DNA of 64,000 bases, taken from positions 1 to 64,000 of the IMG/VR virus record IMGVR_UViG_3300009528_000013; one strand, given 5' to 3'. Every line of letters starts with the position of its first letter. Positions within the stretch are counted from its first letter, which is position 1. This DNA is from a virus. Positions 6,062 to 60,024 of the stretch are shown piece after piece. The notes beneath the pieces were generated by a model that was not told where the DNA came from, made no database searches, and saw only the letters and a list, made by a program, of their open reading frames with translations. The position numbers and the translations under genes are program-made.

Positions 6062-6280
6062 TTATGACGTTTTTGGAAATTCATCTGTCTGACAAGAATT
6101 TCCCCGATCAACATCATCCTCTCGTTTGTTATCGGTCATTTCGAAGTCAATCTTAACATAGAAGAACCACAGACATAGGCACCAGAAATGAACGGTAGAT
6201 GCCTTAATCCGTTCCAATGATCTGTATCGCCACCATCCCTTTTGCGCCTCTTTGGGTTTCCATCCAATTTCTATTTCCAT
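6062..6280 (-). CDS. hypothetical protein
   Basis: Likely start at MEIEIGWK within track ORF 6062..6427. Confidence 0.45.
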   Translation of the reverse strand: MEIEIGWKPKEAQKGWWRYRSLERIKASTVHFWCLCLWFFYVKIDFEMTDNKREDDVDRGNSCQTDEFPKTS

Positions 6281-6311
6281 CAGCCTTCTCCACTTGCAAC
6301 GACAATTGAAT

Positions 6312-6764
6312 CTATTGTAATCCAAAATCTCGGTAGATGATGCGCTCAATTTGTATATTCTCTCTAACTTTAGCGAGGTTTTCCTTAAACGCAGTGTGAA
6401 ATCGCTGAAAAGCTTCTCTCGTAACATGTAATCTTTTGTTATAGCTTTCCAACGCTCGAAGAAATGGGCGAGGGGGCGACAGATCTAAGACCATACTGAT
6501 TCCATTGTTACCGTGCTTACCATTCCAATACATTAAAACTGGGGCAATTGCTCGAATATCACGTCTCCATCGTCTAAATGTTCTGCTGGCGAATTGACGG
6601 CCGGAGGCATACACTGTAACCAACAAATCCCCGCCTCTGTCTGAGAGACATATCTGTTTGCCGCCCATATTGAAGCATACACCGAAATGAGAACAGACAG
6701 CACCATCTGGAATCGGCATTCCCAACGCCTCGACGCGCAGTTTAATCTCATCGACCCAAGTCAT
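6312..6764 (-). CDS. hypothetical protein
   Basis: 150 aa, ATGA-coupled to upstream gene. Confidence 0.6.
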   Translation of the reverse strand: MTWVDEIKLRVEALGMPIPDGAVCSHFGVCFNMGGKQICLSDRGGDLLVTVYASGRQFASRTFRRWRRDIRAIAPVLMYWNGKHGNNGISMVLDLSPPRPFLRALESYNKRLHVTREAFQRFHTAFKENLAKVRENIQIERIIYRDFGLQ

Positions 6765-46057: not shown

Positions 46058-47443
46058 GTGACGAGAGGAGCACGGCGAATGCCCTTTAGAGTAAATCCTG
46101 CTATGGAAACTTCTCAAGCTTTGACGGTTAAAGCGCAGGATATCCGGAGCGAGATGATGGATCGGAAGGAGCGGGAGGGGGAGGATTACAGTTCCGGTAT
46201 GGATATGATCGCGCCCGGGCGGCGAGATTCCAGATACGTGAAGGGGCGTGATACCACCTACGATGACTACGCCTTCCCGGAGTGGCAGCCGAGAACGGGC
46301 CGGCTGTCTTATGCGATGCTTCGGAAGATTTACGAGAGATCTTCTTACGTTCGGCCGTGTGTGGATGCACTGGTTCGATCGGTCTCATCGTTGCCATGGG
46401 TCGTCCGTCCATTCAGGGGTGGTGACGAGAAGAATGCGAGCGCGGTGAGGGAGTTTCTGCGGGACCCGAACTCGAACGAGGAGAGTCTACGTAAAATCTT
46501 TGGACAAGTTTTGACCGACGTGATGGTGATTGACGAAGGGATCATCGAAAAAATCAAATCGTTGGACGGCACGCTTTTGGAGATAATGGCTCGGGATGGC
46601 GCGACTTTTATTCCGATCAAGGATGTGCACGGTATTCTCTATGGGTACGTTCAGAAGATGGAGCCGTATGACCTCGTAAAGTTTACTAAAGATGAAGTGA
46701 TGTACTTCGAGCTTTATCCGACTACGTGGACGGCTTATGGACTTCCGATCATTGAGACCATCGTCAATGAGATCGCATCGCTGATGTTCTCCGTGCAATG
46801 GATCGCCGACTCGTTCACAGAGGATAAGATCCCACCGGGAATTTTGGTATTGGATCACATTGCGAAGGACGCTTACGAGCGAGCCAAAGCCGAATTTCAG
46901 AGCGGAGAGGATAGTCAGTTTACTGTCAAGCTATTTCGGAACGTCGGTAAGGCGGAGTGGATTGAACTCAAGCGTGCCAATGCAGATATGCAATTGGCCG
47001 AGTTGAATATACAAGTCGAGCGCATCGTCTACCGAAATTTTGGATTGCAGCCGTTTGAGATGGGGGTCACGACCGAGATCAACCGGGCGACCGCAGAGAT
47101 GGCGCTGAAAGTCTCGCAATCGCGGGTCTTCAAGCCATTGATTCAGATGGTAAACTATGCGATGAACCTGAGTCTCGTTCACCCGGTCTTTTCGGACGTA
47201 TACTTCAAGCTGATTCCGATGGACTTGGGGGATCCATTGTCGCGGGCCCAGACGATTTCGAGCTACGTGAAGCAGGAAATCATAACGAAAGAGGAAGCGC
47301 GTTGGTTGATCGAGGACGAATTTTTTGTCGAGGGGGGCTTGAGTGGAACGGAGAGCGACTTCAAATCTGCGAAGGGGGAACTGAGTGATGAACGAGACCG
47401 ACATGGAGAGGAGCGAGACGAAAGTCGAGAAGACGGGGACTGA
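46058..47443 (+). CDS. portal protein (HK97-like)
   Basis: VRPCVDALVRSVSSLPW, FLRDPN, YGLPIIE, PPGIL, NFGLQPFEMG, ITKEEARW; follows terL. Confidence 0.9.
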   Translation: MTRGARRMPFRVNPAMETSQALTVKAQDIRSEMMDRKEREGEDYSSGMDMIAPGRRDSRYVKGRDTTYDDYAFPEWQPRTGRLSYAMLRKIYERSSYVRPCVDALVRSVSSLPWVVRPFRGGDEKNASAVREFLRDPNSNEESLRKIFGQVLTDVMVIDEGIIEKIKSLDGTLLEIMARDGATFIPIKDVHGILYGYVQKMEPYDLVKFTKDEVMYFELYPTTWTAYGLPIIETIVNEIASLMFSVQWIADSFTEDKIPPGILVLDHIAKDAYERAKAEFQSGEDSQFTVKLFRNVGKAEWIELKRANADMQLAELNIQVERIVYRNFGLQPFEMGVTTEINRATAEMALKVSQSRVFKPLIQMVNYAMNLSLVHPVFSDVYFKLIPMDLGDPLSRAQTISSYVKQEIITKEEARWLIEDEFFVEGGLSGTESDFKSAKGELSDERDRHGEERDESREDGD

Positions 47444-48152
47444 GAGATTGACTTGCGTGGTTTACGATGTCGAGATCGCAAAGGAAGTTCGTACCGTTGA
47501 ACGAGGATGGGATGACCCGGGAGGGATGGGTTTTGCTTCGGCGGTCGCCTACGACTTCAAGACCGATCGGTATCATTTTTTCCTGCACGAAGCGGGAAAG
47601 GCCGGTCTGCTGAATCTTCTGCGAGACCGCGTGGTGGTGACGTTCAACGGTGTCAAGTTCGACAGCAGAGTCGTCCTGGGGAATCACCGCGTCGCTGATT
47701 TTGTGTCCGATGGAATGGTTTTGATCTCTGGGACTCGGGTCTTCTGCGAGCCGTCGCTCAAAGGAGGCGAAGTCTTGAATACGATGCGGACGGCCGAGTG
47801 GATTGAGTTGGATCTTCTGCTGAGGTACGTCCAATCGCGGTTCGGTTGTGCTTCGGTTATGGAAGCGGAAGAGTTACTGGGAGATAAGACGATCTACGAT
47901 GGAACATTCGGCCTGGACGGATTGGCCGAAGGGACTCTGGGTCTGAAGAAGATCGGATACGGATCGAAAGCCCCGCTGTTGTATCAGCAGGAAAGATATG
48001 ATGAGCTTTTGAGCTATAATCTGCACGATGTCAGATTGACCCGGAAGCTGCTGGAACAAGCCCGAAATTCGGGCGGTATTTTGACCGATAGCGCGAGGCG
48101 AAGCGTTCGAATTGATTTAGGGAGGTTCTGGACATGGGAGAGAAACGGCTGA
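47385..48152 (+). CDS. DEDD/RNase H-like 3'-5' exonuclease (YprB-like)
   Basis: VVYDVEI, TFNGVKFD, LDLL, LDGLAEGTLG, YNLHDVRLT. Confidence 0.8.
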   Translation: MMNETDMERSETKVEKTGTERLTCVVYDVEIAKEVRTVERGWDDPGGMGFASAVAYDFKTDRYHFFLHEAGKAGLLNLLRDRVVVTFNGVKFDSRVVLGNHRVADFVSDGMVLISGTRVFCEPSLKGGEVLNTMRTAEWIELDLLLRYVQSRFGCASVMEAEELLGDKTIYDGTFGLDGLAEGTLGLKKIGYGSKAPLLYQQERYDELLSYNLHDVRLTRKLLEQARNSGGILTDSARRSVRIDLGRFWTWERNG

Positions 48153-48769
48153 AGGTGTTCTTTGATTCTGAGTTTACCGGGTTGCATCAGCAGACAACCC
48201 TGGTGAGTATCGGCCTGATCGCGGAGACCGATGAGACGTTCTACGCCGAGTTTATCGGTTGGGATCAGAGGGCTCTGAAAAATAAGTGGTTCAAGAAGAA
48301 CGTCTTTGAGCATTTGCTCTACGATCACACATTTACAGTGCGCGGCTTTCCCGATGAGGTGCGGACCAGGAACAATCCGCAGCACATTAAAGCCAACTTG
48401 GGCCAATGGTTCAAGGTTCTCCTCGATCGGCATAGTGCAGTAAAGATCGAACTCTGGTCGGACTGTCTGGCATACGATTGGGTCCTTTTTTGCGAGCTTT
48501 GGGGCGGTGCGCTGAAGGTTCCTGATGAGATTTACTACATCCCCTTCGATCTGTGTACGCTCCTCTGGATAGTTGGAGAAGATACGGACGTGAATCGGGA
48601 AGCGTTCGCCGGACTTTTCTCTTCCAAAGCGGACAAGCACAATGCGCTCTGGGATGCGCGGGTGATCCGGAAGTGTTATAGAAATTGCACTTTGAAAGCC
48701 CCCGATTTCAATCGTGGGGATGAAGAAGTGCTGGCCGAAGGCCATTCTCACAGATCAACTCAAGTATAA
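48134..48769 (+). CDS. Rv2179c/DUF5051-like 3'-5' exoribonuclease; C-terminus replaced by an inserted element
   Basis: FFDSEFTGL, LVSIGL, FYAE, AYDWVLF, HNALWDAR; last ~29 codons come from the IS200/IS605 insert. Confidence 0.8.
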   Translation: MGEKRLKVFFDSEFTGLHQQTTLVSIGLIAETDETFYAEFIGWDQRALKNKWFKKNVFEHLLYDHTFTVRGFPDEVRTRNNPQHIKANLGQWFKVLLDRHSAVKIELWSDCLAYDWVLFCELWGGALKVPDEIYYIPFDLCTLLWIVGEDTDVNREAFAGLFSSKADKHNALWDARVIRKCYRNCTLKAPDFNRGDEEVLAEGHSHRSTQV

Positions 48770-51417: not shown

Positions 51418-51764
51418 TGATTGCGAAAGAGATCAGGACGACAATCTTGGGTTTGATGGGTGAGGTATTGGATCTCCTGCGAATTAGTCCGCTGGACGAT
51501 CGGCAGGTGGACCAGATCAAGACTACGCTCAAGAACACCGTAAATCGAGAGCTGGTTCGGCTTCTGGAGAACCTCGAAGCGCAGAAGGTGATCAAAAAGT
51601 GTGAATGTCTGGAGAAGCTGTTGGCCGAAAGGGATCCGAAAGAGCGACGTAGGCTTTTCGGAGTCCGGGATGCCTGCGAAAAATGTGAGGGATCGGGCTA
51701 CATCGATATAAAGAAGCCGGTCCCGAAGAGGAAGAGTGCGGAACATGCAGAATCTAAATCTTGA
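51417..51764 (+). CDS. hypothetical protein
   Basis: 115 aa; CECL...CEKC. Confidence 0.6.
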   Translation: MIAKEIRTTILGLMGEVLDLLRISPLDDRQVDQIKTTLKNTVNRELVRLLENLEAQKVIKKCECLEKLLAERDPKERRRLFGVRDACEKCEGSGYIDIKKPVPKRKSAEHAESKS

Positions 51765-52887
51765 AATCGAGAAGATCAAGGACATTTCGGACTACGATCC
51801 AGATGGAACAAAAGACTGGGCGGCATTGAAGCCAGACGGAACAAAAGACTGGGCGGCATTGAAGGATGATGCCCGGATTTGTGCGGGATGGTACGCCACA
51901 TTCTTGGACCCGGACAAAGAGATCAAGTTCAGTGAGGTGGAGATTGTCGCTGTCGCCGTCAAGGTTTACAAGGAGATTGCGCGGTGTAAGAAGCTCGATC
52001 CAGAAGAATATAAGTATACCGTGAATCCCGATGAGATGAAATCGGCGGCGAAGAAGCTCTGGGAGAGGGTAGCGAAGGAACTGAGTAAGACTGAGATCGA
52101 GATTCTACTCAAGGAGGCCGAAGAGAATGCCAAAGTCGATAAGGAACAAGGAAAAGGTCAGAAAGAGACAACGGAAGAAGAAGAGAAGGACGATGAGTAC
52201 GCTGAAGTGAAGCCATCGGGCGATAAGAAGGGACGAGAGGTCACCGTTGAGGAAGTCCTGGAAAAGTTCGAATCGTTCCTATTGAGGAAGCCGTTTCTCT
52301 ATTTGGTCGGTGGTCTGGCTAACAATGGCAAAACAACCGGAGACATCGATATTTTGGTCAAAGCGGAAGAGGATTTACCGGACTCGTTCAGGATCCCATT
52401 GGAGTTTAGAATCTATCGGATGTTTGCACCGGAGGATCGACCTCGCGTCCATATTTTATATGATCTCTATCAGGGTCCGTTCACTACGCACTACGAGTTA
52501 GCGGATTTGAAAGTCGATAATCACGAGGAATTTGTTCGGGTCGAAATGAGTAGAGATTTGGAAGAGGAGAAGGAGGACAAAGACGGAGTTCTCTCGGAGA
52601 TTGAGAAGAGTCTGGGCGAAGAAGGGTTTCCAGAAGAGTTTGTGGAGAAGGCGCGATTTCATTTGGAAATTCAAAAAGCCGAGTTTGGATTGGCCGGGAA
52701 AGAGGGCGTGGCCGCGAATCGTGAAGCGAAACAATCGATGCGTCAAGACCGGGTTGTGATGAATAGAAGATTCTATCCGCAGAAGACCTCAGTTTCGGCG
52801 ATGATGGCATATCGAGTCCAGGAGACGTATTCGGTTTCACAGACGTTGGATTACTTGCAGAAATTATATGAACGAGGAATTCGATGA
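51736..52887 (+). CDS. multi-domain head-module protein with Pol-beta/MNT-type nucleotidyltransferase domain; C-terminus resembles a ligase N-terminal segment
   Basis: YLVGGLANNGKTTGDIDILV (GG...DxD); 33-bp duplication at 51799-51864; C-terminal RFYPQK. Confidence 0.7.
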   Translation: MRNMQNLNLEIEKIKDISDYDPDGTKDWAALKPDGTKDWAALKDDARICAGWYATFLDPDKEIKFSEVEIVAVAVKVYKEIARCKKLDPEEYKYTVNPDEMKSAAKKLWERVAKELSKTEIEILLKEAEENAKVDKEQGKGQKETTEEEEKDDEYAEVKPSGDKKGREVTVEEVLEKFESFLLRKPFLYLVGGLANNGKTTGDIDILVKAEEDLPDSFRIPLEFRIYRMFAPEDRPRVHILYDLYQGPFTTHYELADLKVDNHEEFVRVEMSRDLEEEKEDKDGVLSEIEKSLGEEGFPEEFVEKARFHLEIQKAEFGLAGKEGVAANREAKQSMRQDRVVMNRRFYPQKTSVSAMMAYRVQETYSVSQTLDYLQKLYERGIR

Positions 52888-54305
52888 ATTTTGAAAAGGA
52901 CGAAGATTTTGTGCTCAAGTCCGGAGCGATCCCGCAAGTAGCGATCGAGAAGAAGTACGATGGGATCGTCCTGGTGACTTTTTGTTCTGGGGACAAAGTT
53001 AAGATCTTTACGGACAGCGGCAAGTGGGTTGAGAGCAGTCTTCCGGATCTTGTCGACGAGGTTCCAAAAATAAGGGACCGCGTTAAGAATTTCTGTTTGA
53101 TTGGAGAAATGGAATACTGGGTTGGTGGAAAGCATCGTCCCAGAGAAGAGATGGCGGCGCTCCTGCATAAAAAGGAAGTCATCACCAGGAAGACGATTAC
53201 CTATAATGTCTTTGACTGTCTATATTACGACCGGGACATCCATAAGCTCACGAAGAGAGAGCGCCGGGAATTCTTGGAGAAATTCGCGTTTCCGCAATCG
53301 ACGATGGGCGTACCAAGTGAAAGTTTGATTCTCAATCTGACGCCTTCGCTGTATTGTGAGACGCTGAAAGAAGCCGAGTCTGCCCTCCAGAAGTGTCTGA
53401 AGGCCCCTGGTTCAGAAGGCGCGATGATCAAACTTCTCGATACCGCTAGCTCGGGATATAGTATGTCAGGCATGACTTCTGGGGTCTTCAAGCAGAAAAA
53501 GTTCGCCGAAGTTCACTGTCTTGTCGGTCAGGTAAATTCGACGAAGGTTGGGCCGGACACTTTCAATTACGAATTGTATTTGCGATTCCGGCCGTCGGAT
53601 AAGGTTGATCCGAAACGGGTGAAGGAAATCAAAGGCAAGGAATACGTCTACGTCGGACGTAGTTACAATACCAACATCAAGGCTCAGATCGGAACGGTTT
53701 TGACGATGAAGTTTCATACTATGAATTTGTACCACGACGATGAATCAGGTTTCAATCGCCTTCATTTATATGAGCCGATAGTCGTTGAAATTTGGGTTGA
53801 AAAAAAGGAGCCGGATTATTTTTCGATTGCAATTAAGATCGGTCAGACTGTCAATTTGTTAATCGAGAAAGCTTTCACGAAGGCGATGGATTTGTTGTGG
53901 AGAGTGCCCCCCGAAGAAATGAAAAACTGGGTCCCCGGCTATCGCCGGAGCGCAGAATTCGATAGTGGTGTTCTTAAAATGGAGACTGTGCCGGATGAGC
54001 TACGCAAAGGGCGATTTGTCTGGTTTGTCACCGATGAGCCCGAGATAGATGTTGAAAAAATGAATAAGCAACTTAGCATTGAGAAGATGAAGCACCCCTT
54101 TCCGAAGCTCACCAACAAAAAGGTCTCCGATCTTGAGGAGGGCGAGGGTACGTATCCGCGAAAAGGTGGAAGATTACGGGGCGTTAGCGTCGGCAGAGAT
54201 GAGGATGGGTACTACGTTTTCACACATCGGTCGCGATCGAAATCGTATCCTTCTGTGAAAGATATTCCCGATAGGGTGGTTCAGCAGGTCGAATCCACTG
54301 GTTAA
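52884..54305 (+). CDS. ATP-dependent DNA ligase-like protein
   Basis: Motif I EKKYDG, III LIGEME, IIIa YNVFDCLY, RERREFL, IV EGAMIK, V KQKK, OB-like C-terminus. Confidence 0.85.
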   Translation: MNFEKDEDFVLKSGAIPQVAIEKKYDGIVLVTFCSGDKVKIFTDSGKWVESSLPDLVDEVPKIRDRVKNFCLIGEMEYWVGGKHRPREEMAALLHKKEVITRKTITYNVFDCLYYDRDIHKLTKRERREFLEKFAFPQSTMGVPSESLILNLTPSLYCETLKEAESALQKCLKAPGSEGAMIKLLDTASSGYSMSGMTSGVFKQKKFAEVHCLVGQVNSTKVGPDTFNYELYLRFRPSDKVDPKRVKEIKGKEYVYVGRSYNTNIKAQIGTVLTMKFHTMNLYHDDESGFNRLHLYEPIVVEIWVEKKEPDYFSIAIKIGQTVNLLIEKAFTKAMDLLWRVPPEEMKNWVPGYRRSAEFDSGVLKMETVPDELRKGRFVWFVTDEPEIDVEKMNKQLSIEKMKHPFPKLTNKKVSDLEEGEGTYPRKGGRLRGVSVGRDEDGYYVFTHRSRSKSYPSVKDIPDRVVQQVESTG

Positions 54306-54314
54306 GGAGAAGAG

Positions 54315-57300
54315 ATGGGGAGAGTCAAATATCGAGCCAAAATTCTGAAAATCGAGGGGGACAATGTTCACTTCTCCATTCCAACTGAAGTTTTCGCACG
54401 GACAATTCCCGACTTCGAAGGTTTCGATCTAGCTGACCCCTTAACGCTGAAGGCCGATTTTCTTGACATCGAGAAGATATTCTATTTGGGAAGCAAGGGG
54501 AGACTAAAGAATCAATTTGCGAAATTGGTTCCGGAGGATGTCAAAACAATTTTCGATCCAATGTGTGGGACTGCTCTGTTTTTAGCGGAGATGGCGAAGC
54601 AAGGAAAGAGGATCATTGCAAACGATTACTCGACGGCGCCTTTTTATACCGCCCGGGCGATGTTTTTGAAAAATAAGCCGAACGAAGAAGAGTTCAAAGC
54701 ATTTCTTAAATCTGTAAATGAAGTCGAGGGGTACTATTTTCAAAATGCAAAAAAACTCTTTCCAATCCTGGCTGGTAGGAAGCATGCTCAGAAGTTTATA
54801 GATGGATATATCCTTCGGGCGAGGGAGGCGAAGTTTGGACATTACTATCTTGGAGTGTTGTCTGCCTGCCTCTTGAATTGGTTTGGGTCGTTTGGCGGAC
54901 CGTATCGAAAATGGAGTTTTGCAGAATTCAAATCCAAGCTCGGATTTTACGCGAAGCAACTACGTTCTTTCGAAATCGAGGGGACAGTTACCAATTTAGA
55001 CGCCTTGACGATGGAGATTCCCTCGGTCGATATGATTTACTTCGATCCACCGTACTCGGAAAAACTGTTCAAGTACATCACAAAGTTTGGAAAGTTGAAT
55101 GCGATTCTACTTCAGAAGGATTGGGATAAGAAAGAAGTTACCCAGGATCAGGTACAGGCGCTTGCTGAAAAGTTGGCCGGGCATTGCAAATATCTCTTTG
55201 TTTCGACTAGTCCCGCCTGTCCGATCAAATGGAAAGCGCTTTTTGAAAGAACGAAGCGCCAGGCCAGTCAGAAACGCTTCGCTCTGACTGGTTCCGGAGC
55301 AATCGCAGCCAGCTTACCATCAGCACAGCAGAACAAAAGAAGAATGTCGGAGATCCTCTGGGTCTCCGTTCGGAAGTCGGAGGGAGAGGAACAAGAAAAA
55401 GCAGAGATTGAAAAAGCGAAAGCCGATCCCTTTAGCGTTTACCCCGACGAGAGCGGGGACTACAGTTATATGATGCACACTCACGCGAGAGGGCGATCGG
55501 TCCACGCGGATTTGCGAATTCAAAGCCTGGGAAAGGAGTTCTTGGTCGGATGGACCCTAATGATTCAAAGAGAAGGTGCGATCAAAGAACCGATTCTCTC
55601 GATGGGCGATTTGAGAAAGATCAATGCCGATTCTACGAAATACTACAAAATCAATTTGCAGACGGGCGAGTGGGCGGAGAGAGAGAAGAAAAGTACGAAA
55701 CCAGGAACGACAGTTCGAGTCGAATTGGTTGCGACTCGCAAATCTCCGGAACCGAAAAGTTGGATGACATTTGAAGGTGTCGTTAAACCAGGAGTCCTCG
55801 GAGCGACGAAGGAATTTCCCGGGGTATTTGTTATTGTCGATCGGGGGAAGGCGGAGTACCTTTCGCAAAAGCCGTGGCTCCACGAATATTTTTTTGATGG
55901 GAAGGTTCTTAAGAAGGGACGATTCTTTTTCCGTCAGCTTCGAGCCTGGAAGACGAAAAAATCTGATGATGAGCCCGATCAACAGGAGATTCTCGGCAGC
56001 GAAGTGTTGTGGAATCACATAGCGGATCTGAACAGCCGGGCTTTTGCAGTTTTGAAGGGTGAGGGAATGACCGATGAGGAGATCCGGCAATGGATCGAAC
56101 CGCAATTGATTGAGGTCATGAAAGAAATGGGTCTGCCCGCGGAATCGGAAGTTTCAGTCGATGATCCGATGGATAGGGGACTGAAAGAAGAAGATATTCT
56201 GAAAGCTTTCGTCATTCCGCCCGGCAAGGAAGAAGGTCTGGGTCCAGAGCTCGGGTGGCTTTGTATCAATCCCGACGATCAGATTCCTTACGTCCTTTCG
56301 AACCGAGCCATCGAGCAGGGTTTCCTTCCACCGCCGACCATTAGTGCGCTTCCGAAGCATTGGAGAAAACACGTTAAGACGGAAGAAGAGTATTGGACGG
56401 TGAAGGATAAGCCGAAGGCATTCGAAATGCGAAAGGTTTTGGTCAAAAGATGGAAAGAGGAAGGGATCCTGAGTAAAGCTCAGAAGGGGGACCGGGATCC
56501 TTTTGGGAAATCTGTCGAGAAGGAAGCGCCGGTCGAGGTTCTCTGGGTCGGGTCGAGAAGAGACGAATGGGAAGCAATCGAGAAAGCTCGTCATCGCCAT
56601 GACACGTGTATGGAATGCTCTCATAAGCCGGTACTCGAGATTATCTGGGCAAATGGTCACGGGCACGCTTGGTTCTGCTGGCCTTGCTTTGTGAAGTGGC
56701 TTGGGAAGGAGACCAATCCGTGGTCCGGAAAAGGCGATGACGTTGATTATGTGAAGCTCGTCAAAGACGGCGAGGCAGCGAAAAAATTTGCCGACAATCG
56801 GAATCCGAACATTAAAGAGCAACTGGCGGAGTATTTTGCGAGTGAAGAGATCAAAGGTGCTGCTAAAGAGTTTGAAGTTTTTCTTGAACGACTTAAATCC
56901 GAGAAGGATTCCAAACCCGAGTCTGTCGGAGTTTCGAAAGCTGCCGTGACCGAATTTCGATTCACGTATCAGTTTTGGAAGGGTCCGAAGGTTGTCCGGG
57001 AGGGTCCGACACGTGAAAGATTCTTGCTCTGGATCAAAACCGGAGAAAAGTACTTGATTTTTAAGCTGAATGATAATATATTAGAGGCTGACGAGACTGG
57101 CGGAATGATTCGGGAAGATAATTGGGGCAATGAAGAGTACCGGAAGACTGGCTATGTCAAGCCCGGGACTCCCCTGAATCCGACGACGGATACTCCATCG
57201 TTCATTCGACTTTTGGGTTCTGGGAAAGCGATTATGCTGATCGACAAGCCTGAGTTGAAAAAGATTCAGTTTAAGGGCAAGAAACTGAAAGGAGTGTTTC

Positions 57301-57368
57301 TCTTTAAGCGTGCGGAGGATCATTGGTACGTCGAGAGAACGCCAGCAGAGCCTGGCGGTGAGACTTGA
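54315..57368 (+). CDS. polyprotein: N6-adenine DNA methyltransferase + LigD-type 3'-phosphoesterase + Zn finger + degenerate second phosphoesterase-like domain
   Basis: YLGSK, DPMCGT, IANDYS, YFDPPY (Dam/D12-like); MHTHARGRSVHADLR...FEGVVKPG...IVDRG (PE); CMEC...CWPC; second PE-like fold from 56940. Confidence 0.75.
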   Translation: MGRVKYRAKILKIEGDNVHFSIPTEVFARTIPDFEGFDLADPLTLKADFLDIEKIFYLGSKGRLKNQFAKLVPEDVKTIFDPMCGTALFLAEMAKQGKRIIANDYSTAPFYTARAMFLKNKPNEEEFKAFLKSVNEVEGYYFQNAKKLFPILAGRKHAQKFIDGYILRAREAKFGHYYLGVLSACLLNWFGSFGGPYRKWSFAEFKSKLGFYAKQLRSFEIEGTVTNLDALTMEIPSVDMIYFDPPYSEKLFKYITKFGKLNAILLQKDWDKKEVTQDQVQALAEKLAGHCKYLFVSTSPACPIKWKALFERTKRQASQKRFALTGSGAIAASLPSAQQNKRRMSEILWVSVRKSEGEEQEKAEIEKAKADPFSVYPDESGDYSYMMHTHARGRSVHADLRIQSLGKEFLVGWTLMIQREGAIKEPILSMGDLRKINADSTKYYKINLQTGEWAEREKKSTKPGTTVRVELVATRKSPEPKSWMTFEGVVKPGVLGATKEFPGVFVIVDRGKAEYLSQKPWLHEYFFDGKVLKKGRFFFRQLRAWKTKKSDDEPDQQEILGSEVLWNHIADLNSRAFAVLKGEGMTDEEIRQWIEPQLIEVMKEMGLPAESEVSVDDPMDRGLKEEDILKAFVIPPGKEEGLGPELGWLCINPDDQIPYVLSNRAIEQGFLPPPTISALPKHWRKHVKTEEEYWTVKDKPKAFEMRKVLVKRWKEEGILSKAQKGDRDPFGKSVEKEAPVEVLWVGSRRDEWEAIEKARHRHDTCMECSHKPVLEIIWANGHGHAWFCWPCFVKWLGKETNPWSGKGDDVDYVKLVKDGEAAKKFADNRNPNIKEQLAEYFASEEIKGAAKEFEVFLERLKSEKDSKPESVGVSKAAVTEFRFTYQFWKGPKVVREGPTRERFLLWIKTGEKYLIFKLNDNILEADETGGMIREDNWGNEEYRKTGYVKPGTPLNPTTDTPSFIRLLGSGKAIMLIDKPELKKIQFKGKKLKGVFLFKRAEDHWYVERTPAEPGGET

Positions 57369-57381
57369 GGAGGTTTTGAGA

Positions 57382-58803
57382 GTGGACAAGAAGCTGATTC
57401 AGAAAAACTTATCGTTTAAGGACCCGATTCAGAAGGACCACTACAAGGAGTACGAAAAAGAAGGAAAGTGGTACGTCGAAGCCCTTGCTTCGACCGATGA
57501 AATCGACAGTGAAAACTTTAGGATGACTAAGCCTGCTTTGGAGGACTTGGTTAGGGATGCTCGCGTCTTAACCACTGTTCTCCATAATCATCTGAAAGAT
57601 GAAGAGATCGGAGCAATCGAGGAGGCAAAGGTCGTCTTGGTTCAAAAAGAACCGGAGATTTGGGGTGCATGGCTTAAAATTCTGATTTCGAAGACTGTTC
57701 CTGATATCTGGCAGAAGATCAAAGAGAAGGTTCTGAATAAGCTTTCGATCAAGGGGATAGCTGAGTCGCGCTCGACGCAGGACAAACGCCGAGGGATTAT
57801 CGAGGAGGCAATTGCTTACGAAGGTGCCGAGGTCTCGATAGTTTCAGTCCCGACGCTGAAGACTGCTGAAATCCTGTCTTACTATGTCGAGAAAATGAAG
57901 AGGAACGGAGGAGGACTTCCAATGGAAATCAAGGATCTGGAGAAGATCGGCTTAGGTCCTGCGAAAGAGGCGATCCGGGATCTGCTTGGGCTCACGGCAG
58001 AGGATGAGCAATGGGGCAATATCGAGAAGATCATGGATCTGATCGAGGTCGAGGTCAAGAAAGACGAGGGCGGTGGCGAGGAGGAGGTTGAGAACGACCT
58101 GAAGAGTCAGATCGGGAAGGTTCTGACTGCCCTGAAGAATCTGCGTGGCCAAGTGGAAGGGGGTACCCAGAAGCTCGTTGACGACGTGATCGCCTTGGTC
58201 GAAGCTGTGGAAACAAAATATCCTGCCCCACAGCAGAAGTCGAAAGAGGAAGAGGACGCTGTGAGGATAGCCGCGGAGAAGGCCATAAAGGATGCAAAGG
58301 ACGCCGCACTTCAGAAGTCCAGGGAGATCGCTGCGGGGATGACAGAAGGCCTGGAGAAGCAAATCGCCGATCTTCCCGAAGCAGATCGTGGCCCTCTCAC
58401 TGCTGTTCTCAATACGCTGAAGGAGCTTTCAAAAGCGGTTGAGAAGGGAGAGGGAGAGAAGAAGGAGAAGGGGAAAGGGGGGGAGGAGAAGAAAAAGTCC
58501 ACCGACGAGGTCGTCAATGCCATCGAGGAGACTCTGCAGGAGGTTCAAAAGAGCGTTAAGGACGCCGCCTCCCAGATCGAGAGCGATCGGCTCGTTGAGA
58601 TGGCCGAGCAGGTGGTCACAATGAAGACGGAAGTGGAAAAACTTTCGCAAGTAATGTCAAAGCTTCCCATTCGAAAGGGTTTGACGAGAGAAGGGGAGCG
58701 GCGAGATCAGGAGAAGAAGCCTTTCACCGAGGATAAGGCGTATCAGGACTTGGAGCCTCGGGATAAGCTCGGGTTCCTGTTTGGGAAGTTGGAGGGGAAG
58801 TAG
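57382..58803 (+). CDS. HK97-type prohead protease fused to acidic coiled-coil scaffolding domain
   Basis: EALAST..D, VLHNH...IG, KLSIKG, EVSIVSVP; start refined to GTG 57382 after AGGAGG. Confidence 0.85.
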   Translation: MDKKLIQKNLSFKDPIQKDHYKEYEKEGKWYVEALASTDEIDSENFRMTKPALEDLVRDARVLTTVLHNHLKDEEIGAIEEAKVVLVQKEPEIWGAWLKILISKTVPDIWQKIKEKVLNKLSIKGIAESRSTQDKRRGIIEEAIAYEGAEVSIVSVPTLKTAEILSYYVEKMKRNGGGLPMEIKDLEKIGLGPAKEAIRDLLGLTAEDEQWGNIEKIMDLIEVEVKKDEGGGEEEVENDLKSQIGKVLTALKNLRGQVEGGTQKLVDDVIALVEAVETKYPAPQQKSKEEEDAVRIAAEKAIKDAKDAALQKSREIAAGMTEGLEKQIADLPEADRGPLTAVLNTLKELSKAVEKGEGEKKEKGKGGEEKKKSTDEVVNAIEETLQEVQKSVKDAASQIESDRLVEMAEQVVTMKTEVEKLSQVMSKLPIRKGLTREGERRDQEKKPFTEDKAYQDLEPRDKLGFLFGKLEGK

Positions 58804-58878: not shown

Positions 58879-60024
58879 ATGGATCAGATCGAGAAAGCGT
58901 TGAAGTTAAGCGATGTCGATGTCTTGGTTCCAAAAGAGATCGACAGGGTGATCCAACACCTGGCAACATTCGACAATCCGATTCGCGCGAACATGCCCAG
59001 ACGGACAGGTTCGGGCAAATCCTGGATTCTCGTGCAGAGGACTCCTGCTACTGACAATAAGATTGCCTTCTACAGCCCCGATACGAAGACATTTACCACC
59101 GGCGGAAAGGGCACCTACGCCGATCAGGAATTCACGTATCGGACCATTGGCGTCAACGGTGAGATCATGCGTACCGCAGTTCTCGCCACCAAGGATCAGC
59201 TTGATCTGAAGACCGAGGAGATTGAACAGAGGATTCTGGAGTTCAAGAACAAGGAAGAGTGGTGCATGATCTGGGCGAAGCATTTCGCGGCTCCGAACGA
59301 GAATTACGAGTACGACGGGATCGACACGTTGATCACCGACGCTCGGACTCTTCGGATAGCGAATACCGCGGTCGGGGCGGCACTCACTCTCGCCAAGATG
59401 GATGAGTTCATCGACAAGTGCGCACCGTTTAAGCCGAAGATGCTGATTATGTCGTTGGCTGCTCGGCGTCAGTTGTCGAGCGCACTTCAGCCGCAGCAGA
59501 TGTTCCTGGACATGATGGACGTGAAGGGCGGATTCCGGGTACCCTCGTACCTCGAAATTCCGATCTTTACCTCTTCGAATGTCCCGGATACGATCGGTCT
59601 CAATGCTGATGGGTACGCCGCGCAACGGTTGGTGTCAACCTACGTCTCCGGGACTCAGTTCACCATTGTCGGTGATGTGAGTCTGGACTATAAGGTTGGG
59701 GCCACGGTCAACATGGATTGCGGGGCAGACGGCATCATCGCCGCTACCATCTCGGTTGTCTCTTATTCATCGCCGAATACGACGGTGACTATCAGCGCGT
59801 CACTCGCAACGACCAATCTGTTGACCACGATCATCACCGGATCTACGACGACTCTCTTCGCGCTTAACTGGGATTTTCTGTGGGTCGGTGAGCGCCAGAA
59901 GCTGACGTATGAAGAGATCAAGCTTTCGAGTCAGTACACGAGTTTCGACATCTTCGAGGACGTTACCGTCGTGTTGTCGAATCCTCTGCCTCAAGCCAAG
60001 CTGACCGGAGTTAAGATCGGCTAA
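58879..60024 (+). CDS. major capsid protein (HK97 fold) with inserted beta-rich domain
   Basis: Position after protease/scaffold; LVPKEID, IRANMPRR, KEEWCMIW, YDGI, TLAKMDE, GIP-equivalent LEIPIFTS. Confidence 0.85.
   Translation: MDQIEKALKLSDVDVLVPKEIDRVIQHLATFDNPIRANMPRRTGSGKSWILVQRTPATDNKIAFYSPDTKTFTTGGKGTYADQEFTYRTIGVNGEIMRTAVLATKDQLDLKTEEIEQRILEFKNKEEWCMIWAKHFAAPNENYEYDGIDTLITDARTLRIANTAVGAALTLAKMDEFIDKCAPFKPKMLIMSLAARRQLSSALQPQQMFLDMMDVKGGFRVPSYLEIPIFTSSNVPDTIGLNADGYAAQRLVSTYVSGTQFTIVGDVSLDYKVGATVNMDCGADGIIAATISVVSYSSPNTTVTISASLATTNLLTTIITGSTTTLFALNWDFLWVGERQKLTYEEIKLSSQYTSFDIFEDVTVVLSNPLPQAKLTGVKIG

Follow-up and report, generated by a model that had tools for sequence, protein, structure and literature searches.

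A LigD-like DNA end-repair module encoded among viral head genes is a candidate capsid cargo

The IMG/VR virus record IMGVR_UViG_3300009528_000013 (117,770 bp, linear, estimated to be 87% complete) originates from an uncultured tailed virus, and we analysed a stretch of 64,000 nucleotides comprising its positions 1–64,000 (hereafter the window). When the whole stretch was compared with GenBank phages at the DNA level, zero matches resulted. The genes of the window from about 42 kb on, and with them the window features described below, are located on the plus strand. As part of a late block with tight translational coupling, three tightly coupled open reading frames (ORFs), namely ORF1 (51736–52887, 383 amino acids), ORF2 (52884–54305, 473 amino acids) and ORF3 (54315–57368, 1017 amino acids), encode a predicted set of DNA end-repair enzymes: a minimal nucleotidyltransferase (NTase), an ATP-dependent DNA ligase and two domains of the LigD 3′-phosphoesterase (PE) type, PE1 and PE2, accompanied by a Dam-like DNA methyltransferase. 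These genes are flanked by a portal gene (46058–47443) and by a gene for an XkdF-like protease-scaffold protein (ORF4, 57382–58803), with the capsid gene next, and their head-assembly setting is real. As judged by sequence comparison, ORF1–ORF3 correspond to a polyprotein of the head module that is widespread in viruses and is split here into three genes. The best reading of the comparative evidence, which we consider reasonably probable, is that this kit is loaded into the capsid and delivered together with the DNA.

An earlier reading of the window made from the letters of the DNA (the sequence-only reading) had placed the enzymes between portal and prohead protease, and this location agreed with the profile matches of the flanking genes. 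It had also proposed five domains, a Pol-beta-type NTase, a ligase, an adenine methyltransferase and two LigD-PE-like domains, which were all borne out in their places by profile matches, motifs and fold comparison.

Distribution and domain organisation of the module

Residues 360–1017 of ORF3 were used in a HMMER scan of 1.84 billion representative proteins (clustered at 50% identity), which revealed 986 matching clusters at E ≤ 1e-3 and 250 at E ≤ 1e-30. Most of these family members are giant multidomain proteins of up to 2241 residues. We mapped the domains of the window onto the best 150 matches together with the relatives found earlier; family proteins are designated by P numbers and related loci by L numbers. 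Among the 160 PE1-bearing relatives, the domain termed mid was present in every case (160) and PE2 in 124, while the ligase was found on the same polypeptide in 93 and the NTase in 57. A methylase of the D12 class occurred in 22 and a Zn-binding module in 29 of the mapped proteins. The usual order is NTase, ligase, optional extras and finally PE1-mid-PE2. As ligase and NTase share one polypeptide with PE1 in so many relatives, the three activities are presumably functionally linked. Specific to the window are the three-gene split, the cut through the ligase domain, the methylase heading the PE protein and the separate protease-scaffold gene. Conservation of the putative catalytic motifs within the family was high for PE1 (HxDxR in 142 of 146), the ligase (KxDG in 70 of 75) and the NTase (G[GS]..DxD in 51 of 57); the HxDxR motif of PE2 was kept in only 21 of 114 members.

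Protease fusions and position among head genes

In 13 of 30 large members the same polypeptide contains an XkdF prohead protease domain (Pfam Peptidase_S78_2, best E = 3e-30), and these 13 proteins also match head maturation protease families of PHROGs. A tail of 120–160 residues follows directly on PE2 in about 50 of the 160 relatives, and the consensus of these tails is an XkdF-like protease. XkdF-family peptidases are taken as head-processing enzymes (PMC7824862). To these proteins we added loci from IMG/VR, which was scanned with a codon-level pattern representing a conserved part of the mid domain; this yielded 96 matches, of which 92 were true members and 87 unique. An XkdF-like domain was fused to the module in 28 of the unique loci, encoded by the adjacent downstream gene in 16 and located further downstream in 3, and 16 loci end too soon downstream to judge the protease. 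Other head-protease families also occur among the genes downstream of the module. The annotated PHROG families nearest upstream were portal, large terminase and MuF-like minor head or head-morphogenesis proteins; those downstream comprised major head proteins, a virion structural protein family and head proteases. Portal fusions were searched for by phmmer among 175 family proteins, and zero were found.

In the window the protease is encoded by a gene of its own. ORF4 (57382–58803) consists of a putative XkdF-like prohead protease domain (residues 26–131) and a charged, helical, scaffold-like C-terminus. Its probable start is the GTG at 57382, located 8 nucleotides past a GGAGG sequence (57369) which directly follows the stop codon of ORF3. 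Comparison with Pfam S78_2 (PF14550) resulted in a partial match of 18.7 bits (cut-off 24, E = 0.002), and the NCBIfam model NF045541, "prohead protease/major capsid protein fusion", matched with E = 7e-8, far under its curated cut-off. A hidden Markov model (HMM) built from the protease tails of the relatives matched ORF4 with E = 1.6e-6 over residues 26–131 counted from the GTG at 57382, which become 50–155 if counting starts at the GTG at 57310; the Asp, His and Ser positions that are conserved lined up in this alignment.

Four individually annotated loci, the window, L001, L005 and the virus ANMV-1, share the order of the module among head genes. L001 has a Mu-type portal, whereas the portal of the window is of the HK97 type. 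It combines two NTase copies and the ligase in one protein and fuses PE1-mid-PE2 to a head protease of phrog_976 (E = 2.7e-28), followed by scaffold and capsid genes. BLASTP revealed no similarity between ORF4 and this protease, which belongs to a different family. L005 was the one true locus of a metagenome scan that otherwise returned mostly ordinary cellular ligases, and its order is terminase, a gene for 458 amino acids, module, protease and capsid. ANMV-1 (L003, GenBank KP703175, 1913–5800) is an archaeal virus of ANME-1 from methane-seep sediment. Its gene labelled "ATP-dependent DNA ligase" encodes a complete NTase-ligase-PE1-mid-PE2 protein, and the one labelled "MutT-like phage hydrolase" matches portal proteins (phrog_146, E = 2e-30), so that the deposited annotation looks wrong or incomplete at these two genes. 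Gene position and protease fusions across relatives thereby lend strong comparative support to the proposal of the sequence-only reading that the enzymes belong to the head. Virion carriage, injection and a role against restriction or CRISPR cuts, which that reading had suggested as well, are hypotheses.

The head-gene position also bears on a different explanation, namely that the ligase, its end-healing partners and the methylase are ordinary late enzymes of the cytoplasm, active in replication, recombination, the processing of concatemers or pre-packaging methylation. The protease fusions would then reflect only a polyprotein style of expression, with the enzymes freed by the protease in the cytoplasm. 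The window genes are indeed separate from the protease, and the late block contains further enzymes without obvious head role, namely an exonuclease, a class I S-adenosylmethionine (SAM) methyltransferase and glycosyltransferases. However, loci with different portal, protease and capsid families have this position among head genes in common, which is hard to explain for a replication enzyme, and the protease is of a type held to process head proteins (PMC7824862, PMC5512222). ORF2 is the sole ligase of the record, with no second ATP-dependent and no NAD-dependent enzyme, and a role in replication or recombination is therefore possible for it; as the record is 87% complete, a replicative ligase may nevertheless have been missed. 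Taken together, we regard the cytoplasmic explanation as unlikely.

Catalytic domains of the module

The core of the ATP-dependent DNA ligase is encoded by the first part of ORF2 (52884–53873). Residues 18–196 matched Pfam DNA_ligase_A_M (PF01068) with E = 3.1e-15 and 56.9 bits, well above the cut-off of 26.2, and the motif I lysine was located in KYDG (residues 24–27, 52953–52964), in agreement with the KxDG ligase proposed from the sequence. Motifs III, IIIa, IV and V were located as well. A search of the PDB returned archaeal and eukaryotic DNA ligases, the archaeal ones down to E = 8.5e-7, and the NCBIfam models for dnl1 and for a ligase of non-homologous end joining (NHEJ) both matched. 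As to the OB domain with motif VI expected of this superfamily, residues 200–330 align with the post-adenylation region of the relatives, motif VI being without clear identification in ORF2.

The ligase begins already in ORF1. The C-terminal segment of ORF1 (52666–52887) is continuous with the ligase in fused relatives, and its last approximately 70 residues (FYPxK...) correspond to the strand leading directly into motif I in the fused proteins P0014–P0017. ORF2 begins 23 residues ahead of KYDG; at the junction the two genes overlap by ATGA, with a GAGGA Shine-Dalgarno sequence. According to these alignments the gene split runs through the ligase adenylation domain itself, the ORF1 segment forming its putative N-terminal piece. 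The same split across two genes is kept in the closest relatives P0021–P0023.

Upstream of this segment ORF1 contains a putative NTase domain (52198–52521) with the motif GG-x9-DID (residues 192–205, 52309–52350) and a third aspartate, D243 (52462–52464), which is kept in most homologues. An AlphaFold model of residues 160–257 (predicted local distance difference test (pLDDT) 75–83) revealed a beta-alpha-beta-alpha-beta-beta core. The sole structures covering this domain were minimal nucleotidyltransferases (1wot, 7ae2_B, 1no5 and 8xeh), with Z values of 6.0–6.3, 86–90 aligned residues and Foldseek probabilities of 0.8–0.9; the closest folds are MNT antitoxins. ORF1 gave nothing usable in Pfam and PHROGs and noise in a single-sequence PDB search. 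Motif and model together indicate a minimal Pol-beta-type nucleotidyltransferase, as the sequence-only reading had proposed, with moderate, not strong, support from the predicted fold.

ORF3 contributes the two PE domains. PE1 (55410–55958) comprises the motif HTHARGRSVHADLR (residues 388–401) and carries an insert of about 40 residues. Six residues are essential in PE enzymes: two histidines and an aspartate which bind Mn, an arginine and a histidine which bind phosphate, and a tyrosine (PMC3082917). PE1 keeps the His/His/Asp metal site and the arginine (H390, H397, D399 and R401), which is the H..H..D.R pattern read from the sequence earlier. In a profile alignment the phosphate-binding histidine and the tyrosine correspond to E479 and W483, located within a family-wide RK..P..W motif.

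Inteins (LAGLIDADG or Hint domains) break into PE1 in several relatives, including P0013 and P0136. In P0013 the intein is located directly past a conserved RG.AEYG strand, and the equivalent position is about residue 516 of ORF3 (about 55860 in the window). Such sites are consistent with PE1 as a functionally important enzyme.

PE2 (56925–57365) has none of the six essential residues in the window, which agrees with its earlier description as degenerate. A model of ORF3 residues 360–1017 (658 residues) reached a mean pLDDT of 77.7; the values for the two PE barrels and for the mid domain were close to 90 or higher. The top seven Foldseek matches of this model were all LigD PE structures (probability 1.0), the next match having a probability of 0.14. 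Superposition of PE2 (residues 878–1011) with 3p43 resulted in a Z value of 14.7 and a root-mean-square deviation (rmsd) of 1.9 Å over 117 of 124 residues, and with 3p4h in a Z value of 14.1, the next unrelated fold having a Z value of 4.4. In the model PE2 is thus a beta-barrel of eight strands having the canonical PE fold but lacking the catalytic His, Asp and Arg residues.

Profile comparison pointed in the same direction. A profile of 50 family members searched against the entire PDB returned LigD-PE chains only (3p43 with E = 9e-5, 3p4h with E = 1e-3, then 3n9b, 2lj6 and 5dmp). The family alignments of PE1 and PE2 matched each other in hhalign with 94.8% probability (E = 5e-8, 118 columns), and PE1 accordingly probably shares the PE fold via homology to PE2. 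Pfam and PHROGs gave nothing usable on the PE regions and the mid domain, a single-sequence PDB search with ORF3 gave noise, and Pfam LigD_N (PF13298) did not match the window protein even at E = 10. The relative P0136 scored 24.8 bits against LigD_N (cut-off 31.1), and PE2 of one large family member matched this model with E = 2.5e-5. Neighbours in the ESM Atlas were viral LigD_N clusters (score 0.76), which we take as a lead, and a viral structure library returned a single unnamed match.

Between the two barrels lie the mid domain (56175–56519), found in all PE1-bearing relatives, and a putative Zn-binding module (56565–56819, residues 751–835; HRH..CMEC..HGH..CWPC). The mid domain was modelled with a pLDDT of 95–98 and had no specific PDB match in searches with the whole model of residues 360–1017. 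The Zn module, located between mid and PE2, gave weak B-box/RING-like matches (Z 3.4–4.3). It occupies varying positions in the 29 relatives which possess it, and is N-terminal in the small NTase-ligase proteins P0030 and P0031.

The N-terminal part of ORF3 (54315–55379) encodes a methyltransferase. Residues 57–265 matched the D12 class of N6-adenine DNA methyltransferases (PF02086, E = 9.2e-15) with 55.5 bits (cut-off 22), and TIGR00571 dam matched with E = 1.4e-6. Both expected motifs were identified, FDPMCG at residues 80–85 and DPPY at residues 244–247, so that the Dam-like adenine methyltransferase of the sequence-only reading was confirmed above the Pfam cut-off.

The nature of these domains, and of those added to them in relatives, is relevant to the question whether the kit acts on DNA or RNA. 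Besides the D12 methylase (15 of 30 large members), additional Pfam domains in this sample were a C5 methylase (3), a 2H phosphoesterase (4) and NUDIX (2), as well as a uracil-DNA glycosylase (UDG), an AdoMet decarboxylase, an AAA domain and a metallo-beta-lactamase fold in one member each. A kit for RNA would repair tRNAs or mRNAs of host or phage cut by host anticodon nucleases or other RNase defences, as do T4 Pnkp and Rnl1, with the NTase restoring 3′ ends or AMPylating HEPN-type RNases. The PE of LigD also acts on ribonucleotide 3′ ends. Such a role would be in line with the 2H and NUDIX domains, with a HAD-phosphatase-type DLDGT motif noted by eye in P0016, and with the fact that the closest NTase folds are MNT antitoxins, which AMPylate HEPN toxins. 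However, ORF2 matches families of DNA rather than RNA ligases, and the commonest added domains are the D12 and C5 DNA methylases, to which the one UDG can be added. PE enzymes were characterised on DNA primer-templates, with resection of 3′-ribonucleotides also described (PMC3082917). We therefore consider it quite improbable that RNA repair is the purpose of the kit.

Capsid loading and proposed mode of action

From the domain identities, motif conservation, gene position and protease fusions we infer a course of events in which the enzymes would be made late, together with the head proteins, and would enter the procapsid alongside ORF4, the protease-scaffold protein, or through it. The ORF4 protease would perhaps cut them at domain linkers. 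The enzymes would remain in the capsid and exit with the DNA at infection. In the cell the Dam-like methylase would modify the incoming genome, PE1 would remove 3′-phosphate or other 3′-blocking groups in a Mn-dependent reaction, the minimal NTase would add a nucleotide to the 3′-OH, and the ligase, possibly loaded in pre-adenylated form, would seal nicks or join ends. Rescue from cuts by host nucleases, repair of virion damage and genome circularisation are candidate purposes between which the data do not choose.

Candidate processing sites were found in the form of the motif [ILVM]xK[AS], which occurs 12 times in ORF1–ORF3 compared to 5.1 occurrences expected from shuffled sequences, mostly at domain boundaries (ORF1 residues 289, 303 and 312; ORF2 residue 327; ORF3 residues 352, 365, 628, 719, 755 and 873). 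Close relatives conserve these sites well, whereas in distant relatives their conservation is patchy. They may represent cut sites of the head protease, for which this distribution is modest support.

The strategy of carrying enzymes as capsid cargo has precedent in the polyvalent proteins, which are described as packaged in capsids and whose assemblin-like peptidase is always C-terminal, and in P1 DarB, a packaged methylase protecting incoming DNA (PMC5512222).

Several points weigh against capsid delivery of the module. Large folded enzymes must unfold to get through the tail. The enzymes are not fused to the protease in the window, where the protease assignment of ORF4 itself is under the curated cut-offs of Pfam and NCBIfam; and 24 of the 71 IMG/VR loci with room downstream show no XkdF-like domain. 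No MuF or other known capsid-anchoring domain was found in the genome. The sole ligase of the record, discussed above, belongs among these points. Furthermore, PE1 is predicted to lack the phosphate-binding histidine which is essential in canonical PE enzymes (PMC3082917), and its chemistry may differ.

The same evidence that links the enzymes to the capsid would also be compatible with a function inside it, where they could close nicks in the DNA, clean its ends or methylate it while it is packaged or afterwards, and so maintain the genome in the particle, ejection not being needed. ANMV-1 was obtained from methane-seep sediment, and particles in such habitats may have to last long. On the other hand, ligation, nucleotide addition and methylation depend on ATP, nucleoside triphosphates (NTPs) and SAM, a supply of which inside capsids is not known, and a pre-adenylated ligase allows one turnover only. 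The chance that the enzymes act in the particle in this way appears slim to us.

Returning to delivery with the DNA, a more far-reaching version can be formulated, which we put forward as a doubtful possibility. Many tailed viruses of bacteria and archaea, notably those of sediments and the subsurface, would carry a self-contained, virion-borne break-repair machine in which an enzyme cleaning 3′ ends is combined with one adding a single nucleotide and with a pre-adenylated ligase, a methylase being optional. This machine would be loaded as an N-terminal extension of the head protease or as a partner to it, and be built on a new, duplicated PE branch. On entry it would mend nicks and breaks acquired during long extracellular persistence, or circularise the genome without host NHEJ.

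Comparison with known systems

Bacterial LigD and stand-alone archaeal PE enzymes (PDB 3n9b, 3p43, 3p4h and 5dmp; PMC3082917) resemble the module in that ligase, 3′-end healing by PE and a nucleotide adder form one unit, and as in LigD many relatives of the module have all three activities in one polypeptide. The resemblance extends to the PE domains: PE2 superposes on CkoPE (Z 14.7), and in PE1 both histidines, the aspartate and the arginine of the Mn/phosphate site are retained. In contrast to LigD, the nucleotide adder is a minimal Pol-beta-type NTase and not a primase-polymerase of the archaeo-eukaryotic primase (AEP) type; the AEP polymerase model PF21686 had no match in the 117.8-kb record. 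Likewise, Ku (PF02735) had no match in the entire 117,770-bp record (87% complete), which extends the earlier statement that no Ku is visible in the window. Unlike that of LigD, the PE of the module is duplicated around an invariant mid domain, PE1 having the insert of about 40 residues and His→Glu and Tyr→Trp exchanges, and the genes are located in a viral head block and often fused to a head protease. The description of the module as a LigD-like toolkit hence holds for its functions, as ligase, PE and nucleotide adder are all represented; it does not extend to an AEP polymerase, to Ku or to the essential histidine of PE1, which is replaced. The module is LigD-like in function, but it is not a LigD.

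Mycobacteriophages Corndog and Omega encode a Ku which recruits host LigD to circularise the genome, and like the window virus they would rely on end-joining chemistry at entry. The difference is that these phages bring Ku and borrow LigD from the host, whereas the window virus brings LigD-like enzymes and no Ku. T4 internal proteins and Alt follow the same logic as proposed here, with prohead loading, trimming by the head protease, injection and early action (PMC5512222). No sequence relation connects them, and targeting of the module would use fusion to, or association with, the protease-scaffold instead of a short targeting peptide.

The closest parallel is provided by polyvalent proteins (PMC5512222). 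Encoded beside portal and terminase genes, these multi-enzyme proteins are predicted to travel in the capsid and to be delivered along with the DNA; their assemblin-like peptidase is C-terminal when present, and DNA adenine methylase is a common cargo. Polyvalent proteins are recognised by at least two effector domains on a single polypeptide, encoded next to portal-terminase packaging genes; ORF3, with the portal upstream and protease and capsid genes downstream, has a methylase, PE1, the Zn module and PE2. They differ from the module in that no MuF anchor was found in the window genome and the set is split into three genes plus a separate protease. The methylase also differs from P1 DarB, being D12/Dam-like and without a helicase, whereas DarB is a pair of an EcoKI/TaqI-like methylase and a superfamily 2 (SF2) helicase. 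The survey of polyvalent proteins contains no mention of LigD, PE or DNA ligase as cargo; ligases come up in it only where it states that the 2H domains of these proteins never accompany RNA ligases (PMC5512222). A description of a ligase-PE module in head gene clusters was not found in the literature, the searchable library being incomplete. Capsid-associated polyvalent effectors are thus known, and the LigD-like cargo and the protease anchor would be new, as far as can be judged from sequences.

If the enzymes do ride in the capsid, these would be the first virus particles with their own DNA ligation and end-healing machinery, and a new class of cargo would stand beside injected RNA polymerases, ADP-ribosyltransferases, anti-restriction proteins and methylases. 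With 986 representatives, and 92 confirmed IMG/VR loci via one narrow pattern, the family is large, and it includes bacterial and archaeal viruses of several head-gene lineages. Its PE domains form a divergent branch which is duplicated, has an altered phosphate-binding site and is obligatorily accompanied by a mid domain; the module is also a source of compact ligase, PE and NTase units which are testable as enzymes. For annotation, it marks the head region and sets right records such as that of ANMV-1, in which "ligase" is the only label given to the entire module.

Flanking genes and further observations

The upstream boundary of the head block is the portal protein (46058–47443; Pfam Phage_portal with E = 7.4e-24, phrog_12 with E = 2.4e-36). 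The downstream boundary is the major capsid protein (58879–60024), which matched NCBIfam NF033394 with E = 1.3e-11, under the cut-off of this model. Between portal and module a DEDD 3′–5′ exonuclease of the Rv2179c-like type is encoded (48134–48769; Pfam PF16473 with E = 2.5e-6). It is a probable accessory of the kit, because a DEDD exonuclease is fused to an NTase-like domain in the relative P0026.

Two further regions of the module proteins lie outside the catalytic domains. The N-terminal domain of ORF1 (51736–52185) was modelled by AlphaFold as helices with a pLDDT of 77–91; it recurs in 19 fused relatives and had no specific fold match in structure searches. The C-terminal region of ORF2 (53874–54302, residues 331–473) is rare among the module relatives and matched phrog_3666, a family of unknown function, with E = 4e-14 at residues 415–473; it likewise had no specific fold match, neither region having been folded alone.

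Programmed frameshifts were considered at two junctions and ruled out. At ORF1/ORF2 the ATGA overlap has its own Shine-Dalgarno sequence and no slippery site is present; at ORF3/ORF4 a +1 shift would be needed, and ORF4 has its own GGAGG and GTG.

In L001 a small ORF with similarity to phospholipase A2 (6201–6647; PF09056, E = 6e-5, under the cut-off) is located between portal and repair module. The portal of this locus is extended at its C-terminus, and the extension weakly matches minor head and DNA pilot proteins.

Finally, the palindrome content of the record was analysed. GATC is its commonest 4-base palindrome, with 1033 sites and an observed/expected ratio of 0.92, while CTAG (0.24), CATG (0.57) and CGCG (0.63) are avoided. 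This frequency is consistent with, and no proof of, protection of GATC, for example by the Dam-like methylase of ORF3.

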